64,000 nucleotides of DNA from Candidatus Nanohaloarchaea archaeon (GCA_013343275.1 CP046106.1:352001-416000); one strand, 5' to 3'; counted from the first letter of the stretch, positions 25,992 to 48,589 are shown. Notes: generated from the letters alone by a model not told the origin. Program-made: numbers and translations.

Positions 25992-26065
25992 TGGACTCTG
26001 TGGGATTTGAACCCACGGCCTCTTCCCTGCCAAGGAAGCGTTCCGCCAAGCTGAACTAAGAGCCC
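25992..26065 (-). tRNA. tRNA-Ala(GGC), intronless, CCA not encoded
   Basis: GGGCTCT TA GTTC AGCTTGGCG GAAC G CTTCC TTGGCAG GGAAG AGGCC GTGGG TTCAAAT CCCAC AGAGTCC A; G3:U70. Confidence 0.96.
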
Positions 26066-33371: not shown

Positions 33372-33761
33372 CTAAGCAGATTCAGCACAGTGCTCACAGC
33401 AGAAAATTTCCCCGTCCTCCTCGTAACCGCCGCTGTAGATCTCACAGCCGCAGTTTTCACACTCTTCCACCTGGTCAAGTACTGAGGCCTCTATTACTTC
33501 GCCGAATGATTCGACTTTTTCAGATGCGAAATCCTCTCCTTCCTCTGTCAGAGAATAAACTTTCTTTCTGCCGTCTTTCCGTTCCTCAACTAGGTTGTTG
33601 TCAACTAATTTTGACAGAAAAGGGTATATGTGAGAACTTGAAGGCCTGTTGCCTGTTAACTCCTCTATACGATCCATTAACTCATATCCGTGCCTCTCGT
33701 CGCTTTTCAGGAGAAGTACTGTGTACAGGCGGTTGACATTTGAGAGATTTATCTCGGTCAT
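33372..33761 (-). CDS. PadR-family regulator with Cys-rich C-terminal metal-binding tail (copy 1)
   Basis: HGYEL, HIYPFL..L, RKKVYSLTEEG; tail CENCGC...CCEHC. Confidence 0.88.
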   Translation of the reverse strand: MTEINLSNVNRLYTVLLLKSDERHGYELMDRIEELTGNRPSSSHIYPFLSKLVDNNLVEERKDGRKKVYSLTEEGEDFASEKVESFGEVIEASVLDQVEECENCGCEIYSGGYEEDGEIFCCEHCAESA

Positions 33762-33795
33762 ATAGTTTGGCTATTGTGAAAAAGATATAAAATTG

Positions 33796-33810
33796 TATCA
33801 TATTTTGATA
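33796..33810. promoter_or_regulatory. Operator TATCA-N5-TGATA (site 1)
   Basis: gTATCAtatttTGATAc between padR1 and the hydrolase gene. Confidence 0.7.
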
Positions 33811-33860
33811 CTTCTGTGAAAAAGTTCGAAGATATACGTAAAGAGCTTCCTGAACCAAAA

Positions 33861-34641
33861 ATGGTAGAGATAGAGGAGGATTACTTTCTCGAAACGCTAT
33901 CGGGAGAGAGATTCCTCCTGCATCATCTTTGTTCACGGGGGCGGAGGAAACCTATGGAACTCTTACCGACAGTTTGACTGGTTTAAAGAGAAATACACTC
34001 TGATCTCTTACAACCTCTCGGGCTATGGTAGGTCCTCTTATCGTGAAGATCAAAGTCTGGAGAATCATGTTGAAGACCTCAGAAAACTCATAGAAAAATA
34101 TGGTATTAGGGACGTGGTTGTTCATGGACACAGTTACGGTACTGAGATCGCCCTCGAGTACGCAAAAGAGTATAGTCCGGAGGGCCTCGTTATCACTGGC
34201 GGCGGAGCATTCGACCTAACTCCGGAATGGGAGAAACCATTACTAAAGACCTTACTAGCACTAAGATTCTATAAAATACCTTCAAATACATGGCTGATGA
34301 AAAAACTGGCCTCAAAGGCCTTACACCCAGATACATCTGAGGAAAGAGTTCTTGACTTCCTCAAATCAAATCCTATGCCTCACCGAAGATCTGCATGGGA
34401 AACCGTGATCAAGTCTTTCTGGAGTTACGATGCCGAAAACCTCCACGAAATAAACTGTCCTACAGCTGTAATACATGGTCCAGAGGACGGAATAGTGCCC
34501 ATAGAGTCTGCCCGAAGAACAGCGGATAAACTCTCAGACTCCGAATTCCACGAGATCTCAAAGACAGGTCACGTACCGATGGCTGAAAGACCTGAGCATT
34601 ATAACCAGATTCTGGAGAAGTTTGTAGACGACCATCTGTGA
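33861..34641 (+). pseudogene. Alpha/beta hydrolase with a frameshift in a (GA)n run near 33903-33911
   Basis: FVHGGGG, GYGRS, GHSYG, HGPEDGIVP, GHVP lie in one frame; ATG 33861 is in another; adding one GA restores MVEIEEDYFLETLSGERDSSCIIFVHG. Confidence 0.75.
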
Positions 34642-34662
34642 AATCCAGAAATTATAAAACTA

Positions 34663-34677
34663 TATCATATACTGATA
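34663..34677. promoter_or_regulatory. Operator TATCA-N5-TGATA (site 2)
   Basis: aTATCAtatacTGATAt between TTATAAAA (34652) and GTG (34683). Confidence 0.75.
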
Positions 34678-34682
34678 TAAAC

Positions 34683-35960
34683 GTGGAGAGATACGAGCAC
34701 CTCACAATATTCACTATAGCAGTACTCGCAGTACTGTCCGGAGTACTTACAACTTCAAGGCCTCTACTAGACTTCCTCGTAGCAAACGGATTAGATGCAG
34801 CACATACAGCATTCTACATGGGCTGGATCACGTGGTGGGCCCTGGTACTCGGATTCTCTATCGCAGGAGCAGTAGAGGCCTGGGTACCGAAATCCAAGAT
34901 CTCGGAGAAGCTTGAAGGAGAAGGCCTCAAATCTCTAGGCCTGGCGACATTCTTCGGATTTGTATCGTCTTCCTGTTCCTACAGCGCTATCGCTACCGCT
35001 AAAAACCTGTTCAAGAAAGGGGCTTCCGCAGGTTCAAGCCTTGGCGCCTTCATGTTCGCATCAACAAATCTTGTTATCGAGATCGGAGTTGTAATATACA
35101 TACTACTTGGATGGCAGTTTTTAGTCGCAGACTTCATCGGAGGCCTCGTTTTGATAGGCCTCATGGCTGTAACCTTCCGCTACCTGGTACCTGATGAAGT
35201 TATCGAGAAGGCGAGAGAAAATGCGAACTCTGGAACTGAGAAAGTTACTGATCCGGTCTGCGGCATGGATGTAGATCCTGAGGAAGCTGATTACAGCGAG
35301 GAAGTCAACGGCGAGAAGTTTTACTTCTGTTCAAAGAGCTGCAAGGAAAGCTTCGACCCTGAAGATGTGAACGTTGGGGTCTGGGAGAACATGACCTCTC
35401 TGAAGGGCTGGAAGAAACTCGCTGACAAACAGTGGAAAGAATGGGGAATGCTTTACGAAGACATAATCGTAGGATTCATCCTCGCCGGAATCATCGGGTC
35501 TTTCGTCCCACAATCTGTCTGGACTTCGCTTCTAGGAGGCCAGTTCCTGGGCCTTCCTGCATTCGTTGTCTGGTCTGCAATAGTCGGCACAGTCATCGGC
35601 ATAGCAACATTTGTCTGCTCTGTAGGAAACGTACCGTTTGGCGCCGTCTTATGGAGCAAGGGATTCCCGTTCGGATCTATCCTGTCATACATCTATGCAG
35701 ATCTTATAGTGCCGCCGATCATGGATGCGTACAAGGATTATTATGGTAAGAAGTTTGCTGCAATCCTTTCAGCGATGATATTCGTCGCAGCAGTGATAGT
35801 AGGAGTCCTTGTACACTTCCTGTTCCTTGCGACAGGATTCCTGCCAGATCCAGCAACAGCAAAAATTGTAGAGGAAAATATAAAGTGGAACTACAAGGCC
35901 TGGCTCAACATCATATTCACAGCAGCATTCATAGGTCTTTACTGGCTTCACAGGGACTAG
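34683..35960 (+). CDS. ArsP/DUF318-like permease with inserted YHS domain
   Basis: SSSCSY, FASTNL, FVCSVGNVP; DPVCGM...FYFCSKSC insert; GTG start after TATA and operator. Confidence 0.85.
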   Translation: MERYEHLTIFTIAVLAVLSGVLTTSRPLLDFLVANGLDAAHTAFYMGWITWWALVLGFSIAGAVEAWVPKSKISEKLEGEGLKSLGLATFFGFVSSSCSYSAIATAKNLFKKGASAGSSLGAFMFASTNLVIEIGVVIYILLGWQFLVADFIGGLVLIGLMAVTFRYLVPDEVIEKARENANSGTEKVTDPVCGMDVDPEEADYSEEVNGEKFYFCSKSCKESFDPEDVNVGVWENMTSLKGWKKLADKQWKEWGMLYEDIIVGFILAGIIGSFVPQSVWTSLLGGQFLGLPAFVVWSAIVGTVIGIATFVCSVGNVPFGAVLWSKGFPFGSILSYIYADLIVPPIMDAYKDYYGKKFAAILSAMIFVAAVIVGVLVHFLFLATGFLPDPATAKIVEENIKWNYKAWLNIIFTAAFIGLYWLHRD

Positions 35961-36320: not shown

Positions 36321-37184
36321 TTAAATTCCTACGATAAGTCTCAGTAGAACCCTTAGTCCTGTCGCCAGACCGACCACGGTTAAGGCTAGTATCAATACGG
36401 CTTCAGTTATCTCGTCTTCATCTCCATCTTTGAGTACATATAGAACTGCTGCCAGTAAACCTGTTTTGACCAGCAGTATTCCAGGGGCTCCGAACAACTG
36501 TGTTGAGAACTGGGCCAGTAACTGTTTCTGCACATAGCCTTGAGAAACACTTACCATGCTGACTGCTCCGCCGAAGAACTGGCTGAAAGCTATAAGGTAG
36601 TAAGGAGCTTCGCCGAAGTCCGTATCCCTGTGAAGCCAGTAGAAACCCGTTAGCATAGCTCCCGGAATCAGAATGGATATAACCAGGAGGCTCCAGTTGA
36701 TTCCGAACTGGAACAACAGGTAGAAGGTGTAGAGAGCTACGGGCGTCAGGAATAGTGTTCCGATCTCGGCCAGTGACCGATCCCTGTCTTTACCATGTTT
36801 TTTTGAAATCCTGATCGCTCCAACGAACGAGATAACGTAGATTCCTGCGATTACGAAGTAAATCACAGGTGTTATCAGGAACGGCCTGAGGGAGAATACG
36901 ATGGCGCCGGTATCTTCGATGAACCGGAGCATACCACCCATCAGTATGAAAGGTACAGAGGCCACAACGGTTTCCGGTGTGAAGCGGATGTTTCTCCGGT
37001 CGAACTCCCTGTAAATAAGGTATCCAAAAAGTGCTGCGAGTATCCCCCATGCTGCGGTGTTGAAAATATTGTAGCCAGTTTGAGCAGTTACTCCGTTCCA
37101 GACGGCTGTCTCGGCGTTCTTTGCATCTGCAATTATAGGTCCTGCGATATACTTCCAGAGGAAGTTGAGAATTTTCTCTATCAA
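36321..37184 (-). CDS. DUF63-like membrane protein
   Basis: GYNIFNT, PFILMGGMLRFIED, LITP.IYF, VGLATGLR. Confidence 0.8.
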   Translation of the reverse strand: MIEKILNFLWKYIAGPIIADAKNAETAVWNGVTAQTGYNIFNTAAWGILAALFGYLIYREFDRRNIRFTPETVVASVPFILMGGMLRFIEDTGAIVFSLRPFLITPVIYFVIAGIYVISFVGAIRISKKHGKDRDRSLAEIGTLFLTPVALYTFYLLFQFGINWSLLVISILIPGAMLTGFYWLHRDTDFGEAPYYLIAFSQFFGGAVSMVSVSQGYVQKQLLAQFSTQLFGAPGILLVKTGLLAAVLYVLKDGDEDEITEAVLILALTVVGLATGLRVLLRLIVGI

Positions 37185-37613
37185 CTATATCACCACTTGT
37201 AGAAGCATGTATAGAACCGCCAGCAACATGCCTAGATCTAAGAGAATGTGTTCCCATGAGAGCTTGAGTTCAACTGCTGTACCCATACACCCACAGTTAG
37301 GTCTGTCTGGATTCTCCTTCATTTCGTATAGTTGTGCGGCTATGAATATGATGAGGCTCAGAGATATGAAAATAAGAGCGATCTCTGGCAAAATCCAGAC
37401 TAATAGCATAGCTCCGGAGATTACTTCGACTATAGGCAACAGATAAGCCATATATCTAGAGACTTCCTCGAATCTATCCGGGACTATAGCATAGGATGAC
37501 GCTATACCAGCAAAACCTTTCAGGTCGGGGAGCTTGAGTATACCTGATAAAATCAGATAGCCGCCTATAAGAACTCTTAGAGCTAGAATTAGCGGTGTCG
37601 AGTGCATGACCAT
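37185..37613 (-). CDS. MauE/DoxX-family membrane protein
   Basis: R..IG..LILSG..K, LP..E, NCGCMG. Confidence 0.82.
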   Translation of the reverse strand: MVMHSTPLILALRVLIGGYLILSGILKLPDLKGFAGIASSYAIVPDRFEEVSRYMAYLLPIVEVISGAMLLVWILPEIALIFISLSLIIFIAAQLYEMKENPDRPNCGCMGTAVELKLSWEHILLDLGMLLAVLYMLLQVVI

Positions 37614-38224
37614 CAGCTCAGTTTGATTACTATGTTATCGCCGTCTCTTGGAATGTAACTTAATGGGTTTTCAAGTTTTTCTCCATTTGCTTTGACTGTG
37701 AGATTAGCTGGTTCTCCGTTGCAACTGGTTTGACCCATTACTGAGTCTTTCTTCAGCTGTCCGCCAAGATTATCAACTATCCAATCGAGCGTCGCCTGTT
37801 CTTTCGTCCTGACTCCTTCTAGGTGGAATGTTGTTGTTCCGTGCGTGTGTGCCTTAATTCCTCCGCCTTGTAGGACTCTGCTTTCTCCACAGACTATGAG
37901 CTGGTAGTTGGCGTGCCAGTGAACTGGAACTCCTATCCCTTTATCAGGAATTTTTTCTGGCTGCAGGGACTTGGAGAACTGGTATGCTTGGAAGCCTCCG
38001 ACTACGAGTCCTGCGAGAACCATGGCAGCGATTCCGCCATATACAATCTTTCTGTTCCGTTTATGTTTCGCTGTCTGTTCCTTCTCATTTAACTTGTTTA
38101 GTTTTCTCTGTTTGCCATCCTTATCGTGGCTTGACATCTCTTCCTCGTGATCCTTTAGTTCGTGCTGTAGCTTTCTCTTTTCTTTTTCGAATTCTTTTTC
38201 GCAGTAGTCGCAGTCTTCTGGCAT
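37613..38224 (-). CDS. C2H2-like finger + TM + His-rich extracellular domain protein
   Basis: CDYC...HELKDH; TM; VHWHANY...HTHG...FHLEG. Confidence 0.75.
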   Translation of the reverse strand: MPEDCDYCEKEFEKEKRKLQHELKDHEEEMSSHDKDGKQRKLNKLNEKEQTAKHKRNRKIVYGGIAAMVLAGLVVGGFQAYQFSKSLQPEKIPDKGIGVPVHWHANYQLIVCGESRVLQGGGIKAHTHGTTTFHLEGVRTKEQATLDWIVDNLGGQLKKDSVMGQTSCNGEPANLTVKANGEKLENPLSYIPRDGDNIVIKLS

Positions 38225-38234
38225 AATTTGACAC

Positions 38235-38831
38235 CTAAGTTGAAACGAACCTTCCGACCATTCCCTGCTCTGAGTGACCTGGCAGTGTGCACTCGAACCT
38301 GAGTGGTAGTTCTCCTGCTTTTGAAACGTTGACCGTGAATGATTCGGACTGGCCGGGCTGTACCAGGCTGGTTCCTTTGCCGACACCTGTCAACCGGAGA
38401 TTGTGGCCGATAGAACCTCTGTTAGTGAACCGCACCATTACCGTTCCCGTTTTGTTTACTCCTGTAGTAGAGGGTCTGAAGTAGTATTCTCCTCCGGAGA
38501 TACGTACTATCTTGTCAACATTTTTACTGATTTTTTCCTCCGTACTTTGTCCCGGGTTCATAGAGTTAAGCGCTAATCCTCCGCCAGCCACGGTAAGAGC
38601 GATCAGTATCCCGGCTATAGCTAACTTGTTGCCTAGAACTGTTTTGCGGACAGTTCCCCAGTGTTTTTTCTTGTGTTCTCTTAGACTTTCCTTCGAGCTG
38701 AATTTCTCTCCACACTTGGAGCATTCTTCCAATTTGCTGTGGTCGTAATCTTCTTTGTGCTGCTGGAGCGCCTGTTCGGAACTGAAGCTCTTATCACATT
38801 TGTCGCAGTCGAATTTTCCCACTTGTATCAC
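38235..38831 (-). CDS. Tandem C2H2 zinc fingers + TM + cupredoxin
   Basis: CDKCDKSF...LQQH and CSKCGEKF...LREHKKKH; TM; HNL...FECTLPGHSEQGM. Confidence 0.8.
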   Translation of the reverse strand: MIQVGKFDCDKCDKSFSSEQALQQHKEDYDHSKLEECSKCGEKFSSKESLREHKKKHWGTVRKTVLGNKLAIAGILIALTVAGGGLALNSMNPGQSTEEKISKNVDKIVRISGGEYYFRPSTTGVNKTGTVMVRFTNRGSIGHNLRLTGVGKGTSLVQPGQSESFTVNVSKAGELPLRFECTLPGHSEQGMVGRFVST

Positions 38832-39919
38832 CCTGGAGTTATCTTTCCTGTCATCCCGTTAGCTGCGTGGCCAGGAAGGCTACACTCAAAGCTTATAGGG
38901 AAGGTTCCTGATTTTGGGGCGATAAATGTGAAGGAGTCGGTTTGTCCTGCTTGAATAACTCTTGAACCAACTCCTAGACTAGGAATCCTCAGGTTATGAG
39001 GGATGCTGCCGGTGTTTCTGAATTCTACTTTTACGGTCTGGCCTTTTTTCACTTGGATAGTGGATGGTGAGAAGCTGTATTCTGTCCCCGAGACTTGTAT
39101 GGTCTTATCAACTTGTTCGTTTCTTCCTGTTGTCTCAGTTCCTGAATCTGAGTTTTGAACTCGGTTGATAACAGAGCGGAACCTGCTATACGGCTGTGCG
39201 CCTGTAATTTGTTGACCGGTATCGGATCCTGTTCTGTAGATCACGAAGCCAGGAGTACCGGTGATTCCTACAGATCTGCCTTCACTTCTGTCCCTCTCTA
39301 TCTCGTCTTGGAATTTCTGCCTGTTGTTTTCCATGCAGCTTGACAGCTGATTTGCGTTTACTCCTGAAACCTGCCGTGTCATGGAGATTATATCCTGTTT
39401 GTCTCCCCATCCACTGTTTTCTCCGTCCTGGTTGTCGAACATCGAGGCGTGCCAGTTCCAGTAAGCTTCAGGATTCGATTCTCCTACCTGTTTCCAGACG
39501 CATTCAGAGGCTATTCCTGCTGTTGTTGAGTCCGGTCCGAGGAACTGGAAGTCTTTGAATACGAACCTTACCTTTCCTTCTGAAATGTAGTTGTTTTTCA
39601 GCTGTGGAAATGTCCTCTGCTCGAAACGCTTGCAGAACGGGCACTGGAAGTCACCCCAGTAAGCGATTGTGACAGGTGCATCTTCTTGACCGATCACGGG
39701 TTCTCCTGTAGTTTCGAAGCTGACAGTTACACCTGAATCGCCTCCTGAGGGAGAAGGCGAGGGGTTATTATCGCTGTTTCCTGTTGGTTGTACGGTAGCC
39801 TTACCAGTTATTTGCCCTGAAACTATTGATCCAGTTAGGAATCCAACACTAATTCCGAGGGCAAAAACCAGTATCATCGCATGCTTTACATTCAGGCTTA
39901 TCTCTATTTCCTCTGTCAT
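38828..39919 (-). CDS. Membrane-anchored DsbA-like thioredoxin fused to cupredoxin
   Basis: DFQCPFC, GTPGF, GAQPY; C-terminal HNL...FECSLPGHAANGM. Confidence 0.88.
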   Translation of the reverse strand: MTEEIEISLNVKHAMILVFALGISVGFLTGSIVSGQITGKATVQPTGNSDNNPSPSPSGGDSGVTVSFETTGEPVIGQEDAPVTIAYWGDFQCPFCKRFEQRTFPQLKNNYISEGKVRFVFKDFQFLGPDSTTAGIASECVWKQVGESNPEAYWNWHASMFDNQDGENSGWGDKQDIISMTRQVSGVNANQLSSCMENNRQKFQDEIERDRSEGRSVGITGTPGFVIYRTGSDTGQQITGAQPYSRFRSVINRVQNSDSGTETTGRNEQVDKTIQVSGTEYSFSPSTIQVKKGQTVKVEFRNTGSIPHNLRIPSLGVGSRVIQAGQTDSFTFIAPKSGTFPISFECSLPGHAANGMTGKITPG

Positions 39920-40332
39920 TCTTTTTCCCTCCTGGCTGATTGAAGTGTTACCCCTAGAGCTAGAAGCAATAATCCGATATCCCTGATTATTACATCCATG
40001 TAACCTGCGCCTCCAAGAGCGAGGTTCAAAATTATTCCTGCCATCGACAGCGTGACTAATCCAGCTGCCACAGTAGTATATTTATCGAGTGTCAGGGCTG
40101 CTCCGAACAGAATCTCGAATACACCGTTCGCTTTCATGAAAAGAGTTCCAGTTAAGCCTATCTGGCTCATCAGGTCCGCGAAGACGGGAGCTATGTAGCT
40201 TGCCCATACAGCAGGATTTACCAGCTTGTGTACCCCGGAGAACAGTATAACGGTTCCAATACCCAGACGGAAAACCGTGCTTGAATGTTCTGAATATCGT
40301 TCTAAAAACTCTTTCAGGGAGTCGGTAAGCAT
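39916..40332 (-). CDS. DoxX-family membrane protein
   Basis: RLGIG...SGVHKL, GVFE, IIRDIGL. Confidence 0.8.
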   Translation of the reverse strand: MLTDSLKEFLERYSEHSSTVFRLGIGTVILFSGVHKLVNPAVWASYIAPVFADLMSQIGLTGTLFMKANGVFEILFGAALTLDKYTTVAAGLVTLSMAGIILNLALGGAGYMDVIIRDIGLLLLALGVTLQSARREKE

Positions 40333-40358
40333 CTCTGTCTGAGTTTAATCTGCTACAG

Positions 40359-40382
40359 TTTTAAAGGTTACAATAGGGTTAC
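40359..40382 (-). promoter_or_regulatory. TATA box preceded by GTAACC-N5-GTAACC direct repeat
   Basis: + strand ttttaaaGGTTACaatagGGTTAC, about 27 nt upstream of ATG 40332. Confidence 0.6.
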
Positions 40383-40429
40383 AATACTCTGGTTTCTTCA
40401 GTTGAAATTGTAAAGAATTTGCTATTGAT

Positions 40430-40942
40430 TCAGTTTTTTGGCTGCTGGCAGATCCTGGGATTGCCGACTTTTGCTATAGAAAAAGTTATGAGCAATATAC
40501 TCGCTGCTTTCAGACCATTTCCCTGGAAGGGTAATGCCGAGGCTATGCCTAATAGTCCAAAGAAACCTAGGATTCCTGCTCCGCAACCGGCACACCCTCC
40601 AGCCAGAAAAGCTGGGAACATTCCACCACCTTTTCTGATATTGGAGACGCCATTAATTTTTAGAGAACGGTAAAGGTTTACTACCAGAACACCTGAAAAC
40701 ACCGAATAAACTACAGAGAGAAAGATTCCTGTGTATCCAGCAGTATTGAATACATTCCAATTAAGGGCTAAGAAAGCCTCATCTAAATACAGGATACTTG
40801 CATTCAACATTTCTAAAGAATAATTAGGAAAACTACTCAAGGTCAGAACTAAATAGAAGATACTTGAGACGGCAATTAATCGTACTTTCGCTGGAAAAGA
40901 GTCGAAAGAAGACTTAAACCCGTTAACCAGTCCTCTACGCAT
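40430..40942 (-). CDS. Hypothetical membrane protein with GCAGC motif
   Basis: Four TM segments; LAGGCAGCG, LPFQG; lower GC than the backbone. Confidence 0.75.
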   Translation of the reverse strand: MRRGLVNGFKSSFDSFPAKVRLIAVSSIFYLVLTLSSFPNYSLEMLNASILYLDEAFLALNWNVFNTAGYTGIFLSVVYSVFSGVLVVNLYRSLKINGVSNIRKGGGMFPAFLAGGCAGCGAGILGFFGLLGIASALPFQGNGLKAASILLITFSIAKVGNPRICQQPKN

Positions 40943-40967
40943 GTAAATTTATTGAAGTTTCTAGAGA

Positions 40968-40990
40968 TTAAAAGGTTACATTAGGGTTTA
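40968..40990 (-). promoter_or_regulatory. TATA box preceded by a second copy of the GTAACC repeat
   Basis: + strand ttaaaaGGTTACattagGGTTTA, about 26 nt upstream of ATG 40942. Confidence 0.55.
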
Positions 40991-41043
40991 ATTAGCTCTA
41001 CGTACAGGTAACTTTATTGTAGATAACCTCTCAAAATTGGATT

Positions 41044-41349
41044 ATGGTCGACACTGTCAGCCTCAGTCTAGTGATTTTTTCCTCAATACTATTTGGCGTA
41101 GCCGTATATTATACATACCGTCTTTCAGAGGAAACTAACAGAGGAAAGTACTGGATATTCTATCTATTAGCCGCGATAGGCTTAGGAATGCACGAATGGT
41201 TGAAAGTTCTACACATATTTCTAAGAATACCTGAGCCGATTTATAACCTTCTTCTCGAGTTAGGTATAGTCGCTGGAGCTGCAAGCCTGAGCTATGCTTC
41301 CTATGGCCTTTACACATCGATGAAGAAGATTAGAGAAAAGGTGGAATAA
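41044..41349 (+). CDS. Small 3-TM membrane protein
   Basis: Three hydrophobic helices with an intramembrane MHE; coupled to the wHTH gene. Confidence 0.75.
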   Translation: MVDTVSLSLVIFSSILFGVAVYYTYRLSEETNRGKYWIFYLLAAIGLGMHEWLKVLHIFLRIPEPIYNLLLELGIVAGAASLSYASYGLYTSMKKIREKVE

Positions 41350-41353
41350 AGGC

Positions 41354-41617
41354 ATGGATGAATCCGTACTTTTCTACTTTTCAAAAGGTGCAAACATACG
41401 TAGAGAAATAGTTCAGATTGTGAAAGAAAAACAAGACGAAGGAATATACCTTAACGAGATAGCAGATGAACTAGATATGAGCCATGTGGCAGCAAGAAAA
41501 CATATCGAATTACTTCGAGAAGAGGACTACTTAGAACACATTAACCCGGAAGGCAAGCCCAAATATATCAGACTCACGGAAAATGGAGAAAAGATATTGA
41601 AAGATTTTGACGACTGA
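41354..41617 (+). CDS. Winged-HTH (ArsR-like) transcriptional regulator
   Basis: YLNEIADELDMSHVAARKHIELL...LTENG. Confidence 0.85.
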   Translation: MDESVLFYFSKGANIRREIVQIVKEKQDEGIYLNEIADELDMSHVAARKHIELLREEDYLEHINPEGKPKYIRLTENGEKILKDFDD

Positions 41618-41817
41618 ATAATTAAGATTTATTTCCTTTAGCTGAAGCACCGAGCAGTTTACGGAAAACCATGGTTCTATTAGGTCTGGAGCTTCGGCAG
41701 GTATTAGGTTCACCGTTTTCCAACTTACTTCTTCGTGTCTGCCGTGGTAAGTTGTGGTGATTTCGACCTTTCTACTGTGGTTTTTCCTGGTATCTGGTGG
41801 AAAACGAGTTTCTCCTA

Positions 41818-41976
41818 TTATTTCGTGACCACTGCAGTCAGTAGAATAATCAGAAATATTGCGATGACAATTCCGAATCCTATAGCAAGCTCTTTCCAGG
41901 ATAGATGAGCAAGGGCGTGATTTAGGTCATCACCACCTCCGTGGAAAACTGAAGGAATCTGGAAAATAGAGCTCAT
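41818..41976 (-). CDS. 52-aa His-containing single-TM microprotein (not in the ORF track)
   Basis: MSSIFQIPSVFHGGGDDLNHALAHLSWKELAIGFGIVIAIFLIILLTAVVTK; downstream of padR2 on the same strand. Confidence 0.65.
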   Translation of the reverse strand: MSSIFQIPSVFHGGGDDLNHALAHLSWKELAIGFGIVIAIFLIILLTAVVTK

Positions 41977-42005
41977 AATTTAGTCTTTGACCTCTTGCCT
42001 TTGTT

Positions 42006-42425
42006 TCATTTTGAGGCAGCGCAGTGCTTACAGCAGTAAGTTTTTCCATCCTCTTCGTATCCTCCGCTGTAGATCTCGCAACCACAGTTCTCACATTCTT
42101 CTATCTCGCCTTCTATTGCGGCGTGAAGTATTTCTCCGAATGCATCAAGCTGTTCCTTTACAAGATCCTCTCCTTCCTCTGTCAACCGGTAGACTTTCTT
42201 ACCTCGATCTCCTTTTTCTTCTACTGTGGCAACACCCTTGTCCGTTAATTTTTCCAGGAAAGGGTAGATGTGGGATGTTGTCGGTTTATTGCCAGTGATT
42301 CTTTCTATGTCTTTGATTAGTTGATATCCGTGTTTCTCTCCAGATTCGAGCAGTAAAACCGTATATAGTCTGTTTACGTTTGATAGATCAATTTCTTCCA
42401 TTTCCGAGTTCACATTATTAGACAT
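42006..42425 (-). CDS. PadR-family regulator with Cys-rich tail (copy 2)
   Basis: LSNVNRLYTVLLL, HGYQL, HIYPFL; tail CENCGCEIYSGGYEEDG..YCCKHC; start uncertain. Confidence 0.88.
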   Translation of the reverse strand: MSNNVNSEMEEIDLSNVNRLYTVLLLESGEKHGYQLIKDIERITGNKPTTSHIYPFLEKLTDKGVATVEEKGDRGKKVYRLTEEGEDLVKEQLDAFGEILHAAIEGEIEECENCGCEIYSGGYEEDGKTYCCKHCAASK

Positions 42426-42439
42426 ATCATTCACTTATA
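42425..42439. promoter_or_regulatory. Operator, 1 mismatch (site 3)
   Basis: TATCAttcacTTATA at the padR2 start. Confidence 0.5.
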
Positions 42440-42447
42440 TATCAATT

Positions 42448-42993
42448 TCATATTTCTTTGCAGCAATCTACCGCCTTCTTTACCAAATTCCTGGCCTGGG
42501 AGAGCATTGAAGAATCTCTTGAATCTGCTTCATCAGATCCTTTCCTTGTACTGGCGCCCATATCATTTCCTTTAATGTCTTCGACTTCCTGTGTTACTTC
42601 TCCCTTATCCGCTACATCAAGATTGATCGCCCAAAACATGGAGTAAAGTGAGAACGCTTTGTCATAGAATTTTTCCGCCTTCTCACGATCCTGGTCAAGC
42701 ATTTTATCTCCGGTTTCCCGGAACCTCATAGAAGCTGCCAGCAAGTGTTTGGAAATACACCATTCTTCGCCCTCAGTGTTTTCCACCAGTTCTTTCATTG
42801 CTTCTGTCCTAATCTCCCTGATTTCGGAAAGCATTTCCAGAGAATCATCTGAACCTGTTTTTTCGTGAGTGAAGAAGAGATGCTCTTCAAGTGATATCAA
42901 GTTCATCAAACCTACAGACAGGTCTTCATCACGGGAGAGATCGAGTTTGTTGACATCTGAACCCAGTTTTTCCATTAGTTCATCTTTTTCCAT
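42448..42993 (-). CDS. Hypothetical helical protein with putative metal ligands
   Basis: NLISLEEH..FTH, WCISKHLL, C-terminal DCCKEI. Confidence 0.75.
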   Translation of the reverse strand: MEKDELMEKLGSDVNKLDLSRDEDLSVGLMNLISLEEHLFFTHEKTGSDDSLEMLSEIREIRTEAMKELVENTEGEEWCISKHLLAASMRFRETGDKMLDQDREKAEKFYDKAFSLYSMFWAINLDVADKGEVTQEVEDIKGNDMGASTRKGSDEADSRDSSMLSQARNLVKKAVDCCKEI

Positions 42994-43034
42994 GCTCTTC
43001 GGGAAATGATTGAGTCCGATAATTTATAAATTCA

Positions 43035-43049
43035 TATCACAGAGTGATA
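43035..43049. promoter_or_regulatory. Operator TATCA-N5-TGATA (site 4)
   Basis: ATATCACagaGTGATAT between TTTATAAA (43023) and ATG 43054. Confidence 0.8.
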
Positions 43050-43053
43050 TATC

Positions 43054-43563
43054 ATGAATTTAGATGTCGACAGGTTTCTCAACTTATACAGTGCAGGAGG
43101 AATAGCTTTAATTGGCCTTATAGCGATCACAGTGGCAGTTTCAGGATCAAATAGAGCTGTGAACGCCGCAGATCAAACCGCGATAAAAGACGTCCAAGCA
43201 GTAGTCTACAAGTCGCCCAGCTGCGGATGCTGTGGTGCATGGGCGCAGTACGCTGAAAGAAGAGGAATTAATGTAGAAGTGAATGCAGTTGGAAACCTGA
43301 ATCAAATTAAAGAAAAATATGGGGTTCCTGAAGGGAAACAGGCCTGCCACACAACAGTGCTGAAGGAATCAGGTTATGTGGTGGAAGGTCATGTACCGAC
43401 CAGGGCGATAAATAAGCTGCTCACTGAAAAACCGGATGTTCAGGGTATTGGTTTGCCTGGTATGCCCAAGGGAAGCCCTGGTATGCCAGGACCGAAACAG
43501 GGGGACTGGAAAATCTACTCGTTCACTGAAAGCAGCCAAACCTCAAAATTTATGACGGTGTAG
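43054..43563 (+). CDS. DUF411 / CopG-like metal-binding protein
   Basis: YKSPSCGCC, ACHT, VEGHVP, PGMPKGSPGM. Confidence 0.88.
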   Translation: MNLDVDRFLNLYSAGGIALIGLIAITVAVSGSNRAVNAADQTAIKDVQAVVYKSPSCGCCGAWAQYAERRGINVEVNAVGNLNQIKEKYGVPEGKQACHTTVLKESGYVVEGHVPTRAINKLLTEKPDVQGIGLPGMPKGSPGMPGPKQGDWKIYSFTESSQTSKFMTV

Positions 43564-43567
43564 AGGA

Positions 43568-44086
43568 ATGCTGTGGAGCATAGGGGTTCTCGTTCTCTTC
43601 TTACTTATTTTTACAGGTGCGGCTTCAGCGCACTGTCCTCTATGTGTTGTAGGCGCGGGTGCTGCGGTAGCGGGAGCATCATACCTCGGAGTGGCTAAAC
43701 CCGTTCTCGGCTTGTTCATAGGTGCATTCGCGGTTGCCACTGGCTGGTGGGTGGCCAATAAAATATCCAAAGAGTACATCTCATACCAGCGAGAGGTCGT
43801 AATAGCTTCCTCATTTCTGCTGACAGTTATCCCAATACTCCCGATAATGGGGAAAAAGAAAGCACTGTATCTAGGCTTAATGGGTAGCTACGGCACTTTA
43901 CTCAACGATACCTACATGTACGACGCGTCACTGGTTACGGCCTTAATCGGGGGCCTAGTGGTGACTTTCTCACCGAAGATCAGTAGCAAAATCACAGAAA
44001 TCAGAGGCAGACACATCGATTATCAGGGCATACTGGTGACATTCACCACATTGATTGTCTTAAGCCTCGTAATCCAGTTCATTTAA
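43568..44086 (+). CDS. Hypothetical membrane protein with HCPLC motif
   Basis: Signal-like N-terminus then AHCPLC; 4-5 TM segments. Confidence 0.75.
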   Translation: MLWSIGVLVLFLLIFTGAASAHCPLCVVGAGAAVAGASYLGVAKPVLGLFIGAFAVATGWWVANKISKEYISYQREVVIASSFLLTVIPILPIMGKKKALYLGLMGSYGTLLNDTYMYDASLVTALIGGLVVTFSPKISSKITEIRGRHIDYQGILVTFTTLIVLSLVIQFI

Positions 44087-44087
44087 G

Positions 44088-44675
44088 ATGAAACTACGGG
44101 AATCGTTGAAGGATAACAGGAGAAAAGTTGCAGTAACTGCGTTAATAGCCGGGGCAGCATTGATTTTTCTGGTTGCCTTCTTCGTGCCTTTAAACAACGC
44201 TCCAGCGAAAAACAGTTCTGAAACCGGATTCAACCGAGCCGACCTCATGTTCATGAACATGATGATAATCCACCACGATCAGGCGATTGAGATGGCGGAG
44301 CTAGCACCTAACAGAACTGATAACGAAAACATACTCGAACTTTCAAGAAATATTTCCGAAGCTCAGAGAGCAGAGAATGAACAGATGGCAGAGTGGCTGA
44401 GAGAACTCGGCTACCAGAGACCTGTAAGAGGGCACAGAATGGCAGGAATGGCTTCACAGGAAGAGATGCAGAGATTAAAGAATAGTAGCGGCAGAGGGTT
44501 TGATCGCTTGTTCTCTGAACTGATGATCCGGCATCACAGAGGCGGTATACAGATGGCGCAGGCTTTTTCTCGGCGAGGAAGTTACCCTGAACTTATCCAG
44601 ATGGAGAAACAGATGATCGAGGCCCAGCAGAAGGAAATCCAGTTGATGCAGGAGTGGCAGCAAAACTGGAACTGA
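44088..44675 (+). CDS. DUF305 (CopM-like) metal-binding protein
   Basis: MIIHHDQAIEMA, MAGMAS, MIRHHRGGIQMA. Confidence 0.88.
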   Translation: MKLRESLKDNRRKVAVTALIAGAALIFLVAFFVPLNNAPAKNSSETGFNRADLMFMNMMIIHHDQAIEMAELAPNRTDNENILELSRNISEAQRAENEQMAEWLRELGYQRPVRGHRMAGMASQEEMQRLKNSSGRGFDRLFSELMIRHHRGGIQMAQAFSRRGSYPELIQMEKQMIEAQQKEIQLMQEWQQNWN

Positions 44676-44697
44676 AGAAAAACGCTTAAAAACAACC

Positions 44698-44712
44698 TGT
44701 CACTATGTGATA
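44698..44712. promoter_or_regulatory. Operator, 1 mismatch (site 5)
   Basis: TGTCActatgTGATA upstream of the second DsbA gene. Confidence 0.6.
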
Positions 44713-44717
44713 TGTAA

Positions 44718-45521
44718 GTGTTTGATATGGCAGAAAAAGTTTCACTAGACATCTCGGTAAAGAACGCAATAGCAATTAGCTTCATAGCAGGAATAATTCT
44801 AGGCATCTTAATAGGAGGTGCAGGCGCATTAACTCTTCAAAAAAGCCCACAAACGCTGGAACCTACTTCTACAAACAATCCGTCGCCCAGCCCAACAACT
44901 AGCGACACCCAGCAAGACAACAAAGATGGAGGAAACACTGTCTCCGTTGCCGACCTGACATGGGAGAATGACCCTGTGTTAGGCAGCAAGGATGCAGAAG
45001 TTACACTTGTATGGTTCAGCGATCTGAACTGTATGTACTGTCGACGTTTCGCCCAAAACACATTCCCACAGATCAGAGAAAACTACGTAAGTCAAGGAGA
45101 GGTCCGAGTAGTGAAAAAGGACTTCATCACGATGGGAGCAAACTCCGTAACACTGGCAAAAGCCTCGCAAGCAGCATGGCAACTAGTCGGAGAAGAGAAC
45201 CCGAAAGTCTACTGGAGATGGACGGACGCGATCTCAGAGAACCAGCCTGAGAGAAAAAGGAATTCACAGACTGTTACAGAGGACATAATCTCAACAACCA
45301 GAGAGGTTGATGGGATTAAAGCAGAACAGCTCCGAGAGAAGATGAAAGAGATTAGCAGAGAGGAGATACAGCAGGATATTCAGGATGGCAAACAGAGAGG
45401 CATATCAGGAACACCAGGATTCCTGATATTCAGGACAGGATCTGATGAAGCCACGCAAATGACGGGAGCTCAACCCTACAGCGTCTTCAAATCTGAGATC
45501 AACAAACTCCTAGAGAGCTAG
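44718..45521 (+). CDS. Membrane-anchored DsbA-like protein
   Basis: DLNCMYC, GTPGF, GAQPY; paralog of 38828-39919. Confidence 0.88.
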   Translation: MFDMAEKVSLDISVKNAIAISFIAGIILGILIGGAGALTLQKSPQTLEPTSTNNPSPSPTTSDTQQDNKDGGNTVSVADLTWENDPVLGSKDAEVTLVWFSDLNCMYCRRFAQNTFPQIRENYVSQGEVRVVKKDFITMGANSVTLAKASQAAWQLVGEENPKVYWRWTDAISENQPERKRNSQTVTEDIISTTREVDGIKAEQLREKMKEISREEIQQDIQDGKQRGISGTPGFLIFRTGSDEATQMTGAQPYSVFKSEINKLLES

Positions 45522-45560
45522 CTCCTGGGCGCCACCTGTCTTTTATTTTTTACACTCACC

Positions 45561-45575
45561 TATCACATACTGATA
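45561..45575. promoter_or_regulatory. Operator TATCA-N5-TGATA (site 6)
   Basis: TATCAcatacTGATA upstream of the operon that ends in the Cu-ATPase. Confidence 0.75.
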
Positions 45576-45612
45576 TAAAGACCTGTGAGGAATAACCAGA
45601 TGTGATCTCAAA

Positions 45613-45900
45613 ATGAAACTCAAAAACAAACTTTCCATAATGATTGTATCGCTGATTACAACCCTCTCCACAGTGGCAGCCCATTCAGGCGAAGAAGGAG
45701 GAACTAATACCGGCACGATGATGTGGAGCGATGGCGGGGGCTGGATGCACAACGGGTCGCATATGATGGGATACAACATGTGGGGAATGGGCTGGTTCGG
45801 ACTACTATTCGGCCTCGCATTCTGGATACTAGTAATCCTCGGAATAATCTACCTGTACCAGCGAATCACTGAAAACGGAGGCGGCGAACAAAATGAGTGA
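45613..45900 (+). CDS. Small Met/His/Gly-rich membrane protein
   Basis: Signal, AHSG, MMW..GGWMHNGSHMMG, TM. Confidence 0.75.
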   Translation: MKLKNKLSIMIVSLITTLSTVAAHSGEEGGTNTGTMMWSDGGGWMHNGSHMMGYNMWGMGWFGLLFGLAFWILVILGIIYLYQRITENGGGEQNE

Positions 45901-46285
45901 GTACGGGAGAACCGCTGAAGTCGAATACAGCTACTCCGAAGCTATAGAAAAGACGAAAGAAGTTCTCGCAGACCATGGCTTCGGAGTCCTATCAGAGATA
46001 GAGGTATCCGAAAAACTCAGGGAAAAGCTGGATGTAGAGTTCGATGACTACATGATTCTAGGAGCATGCAACCCGGAAAAAGCCTACCAGGGACTGCAGG
46101 AGGAAAAAGAACTTGGGCTGCTTCTCCCCTGCAACGTAATAGTATACAGGCAAGACGGCAAAACCTTTGTATCGGCGATAAAGGCTTCAAAGGCACTTGA
46201 AGTGGCAGGAAATGAAAATCTGGAGCCGATAGCAGAAGAAGTTGAAAAAGACCTGGAAAAAGTCATAAACGAGGTAAAACAGTAA
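45893..46285 (+). CDS. DUF302-family protein
   Basis: GFGVL, ILGACNP, LLLPCNVIVY. Confidence 0.9.
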   Translation: MSEYGRTAEVEYSYSEAIEKTKEVLADHGFGVLSEIEVSEKLREKLDVEFDDYMILGACNPEKAYQGLQEEKELGLLLPCNVIVYRQDGKTFVSAIKASKALEVAGNENLEPIAEEVEKDLEKVINEVKQ

Positions 46286-46557
46286 TGGCAGGAAGTAAGA
46301 ATCAGACAGGAATCGCATTAGGAGCACTTTTCGGACTGATGCACACTCTATGGGTTGTAGCAGTAGGAGCAGGAGTAGGTCAACCCGTAGTAGACGCTCT
46401 TGAATCAGGACACTTCCTGTCCTCAAACTACTCTGTTACCGCGTTTGAACCTGTGACGGCTTTAACAGGGATAGTAGAGGCAATTATCGCAGGTTATATC
46501 ATCGGCTGGGCGTTCATTTACATCTACAACCTTACAGGTAGGAAGTTAGACAGTTAG
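46285..46557 (+). CDS. Small membrane protein
   Basis: GLMHTLW, GHFL; two TM segments. Confidence 0.75.
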
Positions 46558-46573
46558 GAGGTTTTTCAATAAA

Positions 46574-48589
46574 ATGGAACACGATCACGACCACGGCGAC
46601 GATTCCGACCACGACCATCACTCAGGTCACAGTCACAAGCATCACGAAGAAATGTTCAAGAGAAAATTCTTCATCTCCACAGCTCTATCCATCCCTGTCC
46701 TATACTTCAGTACTTTTGTTTCAGGACTACTGGGCTACACACCGCCATCTTTCACCGGCAGTAACCTGATTGTCCCTGTCTTTTCAATCATAATTTTCGG
46801 CTACGGAGGAATTCCTTTCCTCAAAATGGCAAAGTCGGAGTTCGAGGATAGACAGCCCGGAATGATGATGCTGATCTCGCTCGCTATAACAGTCGCCTTT
46901 GTCTACAGTATGGCGGCTTTATTCCTGAATACACAGTCCAGCTTCTTCTGGGAACTCGTAACTCTGATCGATATCATGCTTCTCGGACACTGGATCGAAA
47001 TGCGGAGTGTTCGACAGGCTTCAGGAGCTCTAGACGAACTCGCCCAGCTAATGCCAGATACTACAGAAAGAATAAACGAGGACGGAACGGTCGAAGAAGT
47101 CAAAGTAAGCGAACTTGAGGAAGGCGACAAAGTACTTGTCAGACCCGGTGCTTCAGTACCAGCTGATGGAGTCGTAGTCGAAGGAGAATCAGATGTCAAC
47201 GAATCCATGATAACAGGAGAATCCAAACCCGTCAGCAAAGAGCCAGGAGACGAAGTCATCGGCGGAACAGTAAACAAAGAAGGAAGCCTCAGAGTAGAAA
47301 TCACTGCCACAGGAGAAGAAACCGCACTATCCGGAATAATGAAGATGGTAGAGGAAGCTCAGGAAAGCAAGTCAAAGACCCAGTTACTGGCTGACAAAGC
47401 AGCCGGATGGCTTTTCTATATAGCACTAGGTTCAGGGGCAATCACGGCACTGGCCTGGACAATCGCAGTAGGATTTAACGTAACCGTAATCGAGAGAGTA
47501 GTAACAGTTCTTGTTATCGCATGTCCACACGCACTAGGTCTTGCTGTGCCGCTTGTAGTTGCAATCAACACTTCGCTGGCAGCCAAGAACGGAATTTTAG
47601 TTAGAGACCGTATCGCTATGGAAGAAGCAAGGAAACTAGACACAGTCATGTTCGACAAGACAGGAACATTGACAAAAGGAGAAATGGGAGTTGTAGAGAT
47701 TGAAACAGACGGAATAGAAGAAGACAAAGCGTTGACCCTACTTGCTTCAGTTGAATCGGACTCAGAACATATAATCGCCGAAGCAATCAGAAACTCGGCT
47801 GAAGAACGAGATCTCAGCATTCACGACGCAGAAGATTTCCAGGCGATCAAAGGGAAAGGAGTCAGAGCAGAGGTAAAAGGGGAAACGCTCTATGTTGGAG
47901 GCCCTAACCTAGCAAAGTCAGAAGGATTCAAGATCTCCGACAAACTGAACCAGTTTGCTCAGAATGCAGCAGAGAATGCAGAAACAGCAGTATACCTGTT
48001 CAGAGACGGAGAAGCAGTAGCGGCAGTAGGTCTTGCAGATGTTATCCGAGAAGAAAGTCGTGAAGCTATCGAAAAACTCCACGAAAGAGGTATCGAAGTG
48101 GCGATGTTGACAGGAGACAGTGAAGATGTAGCAGAAGCAGTCGCTAAAGAGCTCAATATCGATACATTCTTCGCTGAGGTCTTACCCGAAGATAAGGACA
48201 AGAAAGTCCAGGAGCTACAGGATCAAGACAAGGAAGTAGCGATGGTCGGGGACGGAGTCAATGATGCACCAGCATTAACAAGAGCTGATGTAGGAATAGC
48301 GATAGGTTCAGGAACTGATGTTGCGGTGGAGTCAGCAGACATCATACTGGTCCAGAATAATCCGCTCGATGTCGTCAAGCTGTTGAATCTCAGCGATCTC
48401 AGCTACAGTAAGATGAAGCAAAACTTGTTCTGGGCAACAGGCTACAACGCCTTTGCAATACCGCTCGCCGCAGGAGTAGCTGCGCCAATAGGTTTAGTAC
48501 TTTCGCCCGCAGTCGGAGCGGTAATAATGTCTCTGAGCACAGTAATCGTGGCCTTCAACGCCCAGTTAATGAAGAGGAAAGAAATCTAG
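46574..48589 (+). CDS. copB: P1B-3 type copper-translocating P-type ATPase
   Basis: His-rich N-terminus, [36 protein letters not shown]. Confidence 0.93.

Follow-up and report, generated by a model that had tools for sequence, protein, structure and literature searches.

We analysed a window of 64,000 nucleotides from the genome of a Candidatus Nanohaloarchaea archaeon (GCA_013343275.1, CP046106.1:352001-416000), in which six minus-strand genes (g1 to g6) at positions 36321-40332 include one that fuses a DsbA domain to a type-1 (blue-copper) cupredoxin; a further minus-strand gene, g0 (40430-40942), lies just upstream. All positions refer to the whole window, counted from its first letter as 1. 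The source genome (G000) is a single contig of 915,886 bp and is 96% complete. An earlier note on this DNA had described the six genes as a thiol/copper redox operon that it did not recognise as a described system. We found no paper describing the DsbA-cupredoxin fusion or the g0 family at the level of listings and abstracts, and we consider DsbA fused to a blue-copper domain to be novel.

All six open reading frames are present on the minus strand and, as had been stated before, they abut or overlap. The stop of g1 and the start of g2 overlap by 4 nt (39916-39919), as do g2 and g3 (38828-38831), while g4 and g5 share the single nucleotide at 37613, and g5 and g6 abut at 37185/37184. Bit scores are given with the family cut-off (Pfam or NCBIfam). 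The fusion, g2 (38828-39919), has an N-terminal transmembrane (TM) anchor, a BdbD-like DsbA domain with a CPFC motif, and a type-1 cupredoxin. The DsbA domain matched Thioredoxin_4 (PF13462, 95.1 bits, cut-off 23.2) and PF01323 (51.1 bits, cut-off 25.6). Its best structural relative is BdbD of B. subtilis (3eu3, E 7e-26), with the ScsC-type "copper/metal resistance" structures 6nen, 6mhh, and 4xvw far below it at about 1e-6. The cupredoxin matched Cupredoxin_1 (PF13473, 43.5 bits, cut-off 27) and Copper-bind (PF00127, 36.5 bits, cut-off 21.2), and its type-1 copper ligand set is H308, C346, H351, and M356. The next gene, g3 (38235-38831), encodes two classical C2H2 fingers (zf-C2H2, PF00096, 36.5 bits, cut-off 25.2; E 4e-19 against solved fingers), a TM helix, and another type-1 cupredoxin (Copper-bind, 24.2 bits, cut-off 21.2) with the ligand spacing of g2, H...C-x4-H-x4-M. 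The translations bear out the proposed kinship of these two cupredoxin domains, which are 48-49% identical (E 1.7e-26, and 1.65e-27 in a second comparison).

Among the other genes, g1 (39916-40332) is a DoxX-family membrane protein devoid of cysteine (PF07681, 32.7 bits, cut-off 23.6), g5 (37185-37613) is a MauE protein (85.7 bits, cut-off 27) whose motif NCGCMG, and with it the CGC, falls between the third and fourth hydrophobic segments (the TM3-TM4 loop), and g6 (36321-37184) is a DUF63 membrane protein (122.4 bits, cut-off 25), the second DUF63 copy of the genome. The domain calls made in the earlier note for DoxX, DsbA-cupredoxin, MauE, and DUF63 are hence all above the Pfam cut-offs, and the motifs it listed (CPFC in the fusion, CGC in MauE, and CAGC in g0) are all found in the translations. 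In the accessible part of a study of H. volcanii, DUF63 is a ChIP-seq target of OxsR, listed beside thioredoxin and glutaredoxin genes (PMC9426492).

The last of the six, g4 (37613-38224), displays a single C2H2-like finger, followed by a TM helix and by an ectodomain of 110 amino acids with a modelled beta-grasp fold. Its start is most likely the ATG at 38224 and not 38386, which gives 203 amino acids, the length seen across homologue clusters (47 clusters, all unnamed and all but one of 201-220 amino acids). The finger, C-x2-C-x12-H-x4-H (C5, C8, H21, H26), received no Pfam call and is invariant in 22 of 22 homologues. Thus, of the two zinc-finger membrane proteins claimed before, g3 has two fingers and g4 a single one, invariant but uncalled by Pfam. 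The ectodomain carries the invariant residues HWH, HTH, H134, E136, C112, and C168; it had no Pfam match and no sequence match in the PDB, and an Atlas search with it returned only unnamed clusters, all below 0.9. Its model has a predicted local distance difference test score (pLDDT) above 90 and adopts a beta-grasp fold whose nearest structural neighbour is the "putative metal binding protein" 3u7z_B (Z 8.3, root-mean-square deviation 2.7 over 83 residues), with the transcobalamin beta domain also near (Z 7.3-7.6). This fold speaks against a multicopper-oxidase-like HxH copper site, which we had considered for g4, while binding of a metal by the modelled ectodomain is possible.

The protein encoded by g0 has 170 amino acids and four helices, with a CAGC motif (C117-x2-C120) and a C-terminal cysteine (C165). 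These three cysteines are invariant in 24 of 24 aligned family members, none of which matched any Pfam family at E<=0.01, VKOR included. We also tried g0 as a DsbB or VKOR by sequence and rejected it, as 0 of 24 members matched, and the source genome holds no VKOR match and a single DsbB elsewhere. A profile search against 1.84 billion representatives yielded 1,477 matches at E<=0.001 and 503 at E<=1e-10, the only name among them being "hypothetical protein", and the Atlas contained clusters similar to g0 in Archaea and Saccharimonadota.

The members of this family adjoin DsbA genes. In the source genome there are two g0 paralogues, each directly after another DsbA gene. One such locus (G000:C1:682060-683509; L027 3060-4509) encodes a C2H2 finger, a TM helix, and a DsbA domain (305 amino acids, CPWC) in one protein, followed by a g0-family gene with CTAC and a C-terminal cysteine. 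We searched 41 relatives for the fusion, g0, and g4. For g0 we used a four-sequence profile (a word-index search gave only 4 near relatives), which found 52 places in 37 of the 41 genomes, 43 of them directly after a DsbA-like (Thioredoxin_4) gene, at most 400 bp downstream and on the same strand. Conversely, 42 of the 90 Thioredoxin_4 matches in the relatives had g0 in this position. The nine misses include the copies of the window and of G001, a sister genome of the same genus; in both copies DoxX stands between g0 and DsbA and the order is reversed. Farther away, DsbA is followed by g0 in three of three Nanoarchaeota/Woesearchaeota loci, and g0 is followed by DsbA in one Parvarchaeum locus. 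Within the Candidate Phyla Radiation (CPR), a Staskawiczbacteria locus (L001), fetched by a DsbA query and not by g0, displayed DsbA, g0, and g4 in succession, with hhalign values of 97.5% for g0 and 98.0% for g4. Six of 41 relatives of that CPR genome yielded a g0 match, which adjoins DsbA in three of the six.

The g4 protein often completes this arrangement. Matches that include its ectodomain numbered 16 in 15 of the relatives, nine of them immediately downstream of a g0-family gene with DsbA before it, and in CPR genomes g4 lies no more than 1.4 kb downstream of DsbA in three of four matches. One CPR locus with g4 has a weak g0 relative after DsbA (hhalign 89.6%), and another has a VKOR (89 bits) after DsbA, in the usual slot of g0. 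This single case of apparent displacement suggests that g0 does the job of VKOR, and we regard g0 as a candidate membrane redox partner of DsbA. As judged from these neighbourhoods, the g0 family is a conserved neighbour of DsbA across DPANN archaea and CPR bacteria, a relationship that is new here. The zinc-finger-TM anchor is also seen elsewhere: many DsbA genes in the relatives carry it, as do one DsbA of the source genome and one Nanoarchaeia locus; it is a recurring tether of surface redox proteins in this lineage. A complex prediction for the DsbA domain of g2 (residues 62-256) with g0 scored 0.01 against a mark of 0.32, which speaks neither for nor against binding.

Two further loci were inspected in this context. 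A 168-residue membrane protein with a CC motif, beside a TlpA-like gene at locus L015, was tried as a relative of g0 and discarded, having no BLASTP similarity to it. In a Woesearchaeota genome (L057 4434-6092), a DsbA-g0 pair lies about 1 kb from an open reading frame of 552 amino acids in which multicopper-oxidase-type HWHG and HCH motifs and a Met-rich stretch were read by eye.

The AlphaFold2 model of g0 has a pLDDT of 77, falling below 50 in the CxxC segment. It had no match in the PDB at E<=0.001 (Foldseek), and all its matches among Atlas models were below a TM-score of 0.5. Natural variants of the family are informative on topology. In a Nanoarchaeota metagenome-assembled genome (MAG), one protein joins g0 to a small Cys-rich ectodomain by way of a fifth TM helix (L056 3001-3846). 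A Nanoarchaeia MAG encodes this ectodomain as a protein of its own, with a C2H2 finger and a TM helix as its anchor, right after a DsbA-g0 pair (L058 3449-3901). The charge distribution of g0 together with the L056 fusion, whose ectodomain is anchored by a cytoplasmic finger in L058, places the C-terminus of g0 in the cytoplasm, so that the CxxC would fall in the inner half of helix 3 and probably on the cytoplasmic half of the membrane. Such a layout is closer to CcdA-type conduits than to DsbB.

The fusion itself is much rarer than g0. We found it at full length in 4 of the 41 genomes: the source genome, G001 (80% identity), G035 (63%), and G031 (39%). G039 has an N-terminal part of the fusion, at the end of a contig. 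Both domains occur together in 13 of the best 120 of 1,907 homologues, and all the named ones are nanohaloarchaeal. The active site C93-P-F-C96 and the cis-Pro loop T222-P223 are invariant in all 13 fusion proteins, 12 of which retain the H/C/H/M ligands. The 13th fusion and the copy of G031 display instead a CuA-type set, C-x3-C-x3-H-x2-M (COX2, 21.3 bits, cut-off 22), so that these proteins, too, keep a redox copper site. This CuA-type branch comprises L016 9021-10160 and protein P0089.

The gene order around the fusion differs among these genomes. In G001, it runs helix-turn-helix regulator, small membrane protein, g0, DoxX, fusion, g3, g4, and DUF63. G039 keeps the small membrane protein, g0, DoxX, and the fusion, whereas G035 and G031 retain the regulator, the small membrane protein, DoxX, and the fusion alone, and in both of them a separate cupredoxin adjoins. 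DoxX precedes the fusion in all four. The conserved core is therefore formed by the helix-turn-helix regulator, the small membrane protein, DoxX, and the fusion, and the six genes are a mosaic. The description of a six-gene operon in the earlier note is not supported: among the relatives the set is kept only in G001, there without MauE. The search of neighbourhoods that the note had called for showed that DsbA-g0, with or without g4, recurs in DPANN archaea and CPR bacteria, and the six-gene cluster is not conserved. Close MauE homologues were found at G039:C156 and G031:C2:96799-97612 (E 1e-21 to 1e-23), each adjoining a DoxX-like gene; other nanohaloarchaea thus carry MauE and DoxX as a two-gene module of its own. 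The G035 locus, which has ArsR and CDF transporter genes as neighbours, encodes a Pyr_redox_2 flavoprotein (132.6 bits; L015 10291-11361) directly upstream of DoxX, on the strand of the fusion. This arrangement hints that the DoxX module receives an input linked to NAD(P)H.

Across from g0, on the plus strand, lie a divergent gene for a small protein with three TM helices (41044-41349) and a winged-helix/helix-turn-helix regulator of 87 amino acids (41354-41617), both of which are kept with the DoxX-fusion core. An operator-like element with two ATTGTAAC-type repeats about 11 bp apart lies upstream of g0 (40971-40988, minus strand), and a second copy lies upstream of DoxX (40363-40380, minus strand). 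The 18-nt element has two matches in the window against 0.08 expected, each just 5' of a TATA-like box. It is conserved upstream of g0 in the source genome and G001, and upstream of DoxX in five genomes of two families (G000, G001, G039, G035, and G031). The shared element suggests one regulon; as read from these sites, expression of g0 and of the DoxX operon is probably turned on jointly, and the conserved helix-turn-helix protein, a candidate binder of the repeat, probably controls them.

These features bear on the possibility that a variable island has collected unrelated membrane and redox genes that act separately. Such a mosaic would account for a MauE that is present here and was not found in a genome of the same genus, and for MauE-DoxX pairs and DsbA-g0-g4 triads that stand as separate modules elsewhere. 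Homologous loci elsewhere lie on very short contigs, and the G+C content falls to 0.409 at 40001-42000, against about 0.46 elsewhere, over the regulatory region that spans g0, the small membrane protein, and the regulator. Against this stand the starts and stops that overlap through the six genes, the cis element common to g0 and DoxX, and a core kept across two families of the order, and we judge genes acting separately to be very unlikely.

The surroundings of the locus form a copper island. Its right half (42006-48589) includes a PadR regulator, a DUF411 protein, a CopM-like DUF305 protein (87.9 bits, cut-off 90), a second DsbA, a DUF302 protein, and a copper P1B ATPase (CopA; TIGR01511, 617 bits, cut-off 397). 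Its left half (33372-35960) includes another PadR, an alpha/beta hydrolase, and an ArsP_1 permease with an inserted YHS domain. The right-hand PadR (42006-42434, minus strand) ends in a Cys-rich tail, C-x2-C-x-C ... CC-x2-C, outside the PadR domain that Pfam calls; it is a plausible metal sensor of the island. One tRNA-Ala lies at 25992-26065, and no integrase was found among the open reading frames scanned around the island. In G022 (L054, G022:C48), which gave no full-length match to the fusion, stand-alone cupredoxins homologous to those of g2 and g3 (2081-2518 and 8716-9042) flank a PadR-DUF305-CopA block. The earlier note made no use of this context, which favours a role in copper stress. 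The thiol/copper content and motifs that it reported stand, while the quinone-free relay that it built on them is less favoured than a copper-stress setting.

Two alternatives draw on the same context. The first is that the locus only buffers copper, with the cupredoxins and the CxxC holding Cu(I)/Cu(II) at the cell surface and no disulfide catalysis taking place. ScsC and CopI are thought to bind copper as buffers. The copper island, the weak matches to CopI, the similarity to the ScsC-type structures, and the cupredoxins beside CopA in G022 would all fit. Yet BdbD, an oxidase, is far ahead of ScsC as a structural relative, the His/Met-rich stretches of CopI are not in the sequence, the CopI model reached only 36-40 bits against a cut-off of 280, and dedicated membrane redox partners, MauE and g0, lie within the locus. 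Buffering as the sole function is thus quite unlikely. The second, raised in the earlier note, is that the locus acquires or loads copper for the maturation of cuproproteins. CuA sites are loaded by thioredoxin-fold proteins such as Sco/TlpA, and a CuA-type variant of the fusion exists. Nevertheless, no COX1 was found in the source genome and no multicopper oxidase scored above cut-off as a client, the neighbours are efflux and resistance genes, and the active site of g2 is a DsbA-type CPFC and not Sco-type, all of which makes loading highly improbable. A sub-threshold Cu-oxidase_3 match (18.8 bits, cut-off 21) lies in a frame of 192 amino acids at G000:C1:328809-329045 and is possibly cupredoxin-like.

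The earlier note had also assumed a DsbA without a DsbB-type partner. This premise fails, since there is a DsbB in the genome and a MauE in the operon. The source genome encodes five DsbA-like genes and one BdbC-like DsbB (181 amino acids, CHLC; PF02600, about 47.6-47.9 bits), which lies 2.6 kb left of the window (G000:C1:349035-350416; L028 4018-5480), divergent from a membrane-anchored DsbA (275 amino acids, CPVC). The N-terminal linker of that DsbA resembles the g4 anchor without the zinc finger. VKOR gave 0 matches in the source genome, as did DsbD/CcdA (PF02683), for which the control was positive in 11 of 14 genomes, and cytochrome bd was not found there either. The DoxX and MauE genes of the genome are confined to the g1-g6 operon. 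According to the accessible text of a recent preprint, DsbB can be replaced in E. coli by either of two bacterial MauE proteins, which require a CXC in the TM3-TM4 loop as their active site, and docking puts a quinone in the helix bundle of MauE (bioRxiv 10.64898/2026.03.05.709764). The words "archaea", "DoxX", and "copper" are not in the text of that preprint as it was accessible to us (bioRxiv 10.64898/2026.03.05.709764). Since g5 has both the Pfam domain and the CXC in the TM3-TM4 loop, the operon would hold its own DsbB analogue as an accessory gene; by homology, g5 is a putative DsbB analogue.

Quinone independence is accordingly not supported, given the DsbB-DsbA pair of the genome and a MauE from a family that replaces DsbB and docks a quinone. 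In a relay of the kind proposed in the earlier note, the blue-copper domain would re-oxidise the CxxC of DsbA and O2 would re-oxidise the copper. Several observations are in its favour. DsbA is fused to a redox copper site that was swapped for a CuA-type site in one branch and not lost, neither COX1 nor cytochrome bd was found in the source genome, and the partners g0 and g4 occur in CPR and DPANN lineages. Furthermore, the transfer of electrons from thiols to type-1 copper is downhill. That from type-1 copper to menaquinone is uphill, so that DoxX with quinone is not easily an acceptor for the cupredoxins. On the other hand, DsbB, MauE, and DoxX, all from quinone-associated families, are present, the fusion is rare, a cupredoxin is missing from most DsbA-g0 modules, the surroundings are a copper island and not housekeeping genes, and type-1 copper sites react slowly with O2. 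We consider this relay unlikely, but a rival to be taken seriously.

Based on these findings, we postulate that a widespread DsbA system, undescribed so far, is present here in a copper-island variant distinguished by its novel DsbA-cupredoxin fusion, and that this variant forms or protects surface disulfides under copper stress. We place the probability of this reading at about 0.5. The backbone module would consist of a membrane-anchored DsbA and the four-helix CxxC protein g0, often with the His-rich beta-grasp protein g4; it would be common in nanohaloarchaea and extend to other DPANN archaea and CPR bacteria. In the source genome, the DsbA would have gained a C-terminal type-1 copper domain, always in the company of the cysteine-free DoxX, and a second zinc-finger-anchored cupredoxin, MauE, and a DUF63 paralogue would have been added, with g0 and the DoxX operon facing the conserved regulator and small membrane protein. 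The DsbA domain may make or repair disulfides in surface proteins and be recycled through the membrane by MauE, g0, or both. The cupredoxin domains may bind copper beside the CxxC and either accept electrons from the dithiol, downhill as noted above, or capture and oxidise Cu(I), preventing copper from scrambling the surface thiols. Exchange of electrons between the CxxC and the copper centre is possible. Gene content, motifs and their conservation, neighbourhoods, and the copper setting were observed directly, whereas all activities, the direction in which electrons flow, and induction by copper are predicted from them.

Several observations weigh against this interpretation. The six genes are not a conserved unit, and the neighbourhood counts come mostly from related genomes, which are not independent. 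MauE was found nowhere in G001 and therefore cannot be the obligatory recycler of the fusion, and g0 is not beside the fusion in G035 and G031. The source genome also has the DsbB-DsbA pair and the two other DsbA-g0 pairs, so the copy at this locus may be dispensable. The predicted topology of g0 suggests a CcdA-like electron supplier better than a DsbB-like oxidase, and DoxX has no cysteine. Induction by copper is inferred from the neighbouring genes only. Finally, the cupredoxins of g2 and g3 were tried as CopI and rejected, with 36.3 and 39.8 bits against the cut-off of 280.

The recycling of DsbA in cells without DsbB or VKOR is a long-standing gap. The MauE preprint closes part of it and states, in its accessible text, that further gaps remain (bioRxiv 10.64898/2026.03.05.709764). 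The fusion reported here would couple the chemistry of thiols to copper redox within a single surface protein, in an organism without a respiratory chain. The unnamed CxxC membrane family of g0, with about 1,477 representative clusters, adjoins DsbA in nanohaloarchaea, Nanoarchaeota, Parvarchaeum, and CPR bacteria, and if g0 is truly a partner of DsbA, the annotation of surface-protein folding in DPANN and CPR genomes would change. We tentatively extend this to a broader idea, on which we would not rely: g0, aided by the His-rich ectodomain of g4, may be a further, undescribed class of DsbA-recycling membrane enzyme beside DsbB, VKOR, and MauE, serving ultra-small DPANN archaea and CPR bacteria without quinones of their own, with the blue-copper domains of the copper island as a metal electron sink. 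This would be the quinone-free relay of the earlier note, built from other parts.

Several known systems resemble parts of the locus. The DoxX-like protein GigT belongs to the copper- and gold-induced gigPABT operon of C. metallidurans, and has been proposed, as a hypothesis only, to link periplasmic copper/thiol redox to quinones (PMC10304878, accessible part). Like g1, it is a DoxX-type membrane protein in the context of a copper-responsive envelope operon. Its operon partners are different, and the accessible part of the source mentions no DsbA or cupredoxin for the gig operon (PMC10304878). CopI shares with the g2 and g3 domains a small cupredoxin, the H/C/H/M ligands, and a copper-resistance locus, and its model is the top NCBIfam match for the cupredoxin of g2 and the only one for g3. 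In the part of the source available, CopI is defined by His/Met-rich metal-capture regions (PMC13308877), and such stretches are not present in the domains of about 95 amino acids in g2 and g3. The Scs system is reminiscent of the locus in its envelope thioredoxin-fold protein (ScsC), copper stress, and membrane thiol relay (ScsB), but it has no cupredoxin. We rejected an assignment to Scs, as no ScsB/DsbD-type membrane reductase was found in the 96%-complete source genome (PF02683, 0 matches).

Among the membrane partners of thioredoxin-fold proteins, VKOR shares its position with g0: the gene between DsbA and g4 is mostly g0, and VKOR in one CPR locus. The two differ in that g0 has no sequence match (0/24) and no Foldseek match at E<=0.001, and in that its cysteines seem to lie in the cytoplasmic half of the membrane. 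CcdA/DsbD resembles g0 in having a cysteine pair in a glycine-rich membrane segment and a further cysteine, beside a thioredoxin-fold surface protein, yet there is no sequence similarity, g0 has four helices against six, and the models match weakly (TM-score 0.34). In the MauE system, a small membrane protein recycles a DsbA-like partner (MauD or DsbA), as shown, in the text accessible to us, for bacterial MauE only; g5 likewise belongs to Pfam MauE, has its CGC in the TM3-TM4 loop, and is encoded together with a CxxC protein of the thioredoxin fold. Here, however, MauE is accessory and not in the sister genome, and the DsbA carries a cupredoxin. Lastly, g2 shares with the BdbD-BdbC and DsbA-DsbB systems the BdbD-like domain, the CxxC, and the Thr-Pro loop, and a BdbC-like DsbB is encoded in the same genome. 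It differs from them in having a type-1 copper domain at its C-terminus and a TM anchor at its N-terminus, and in its neighbours, which are DoxX, g0, and MauE in place of DsbB.

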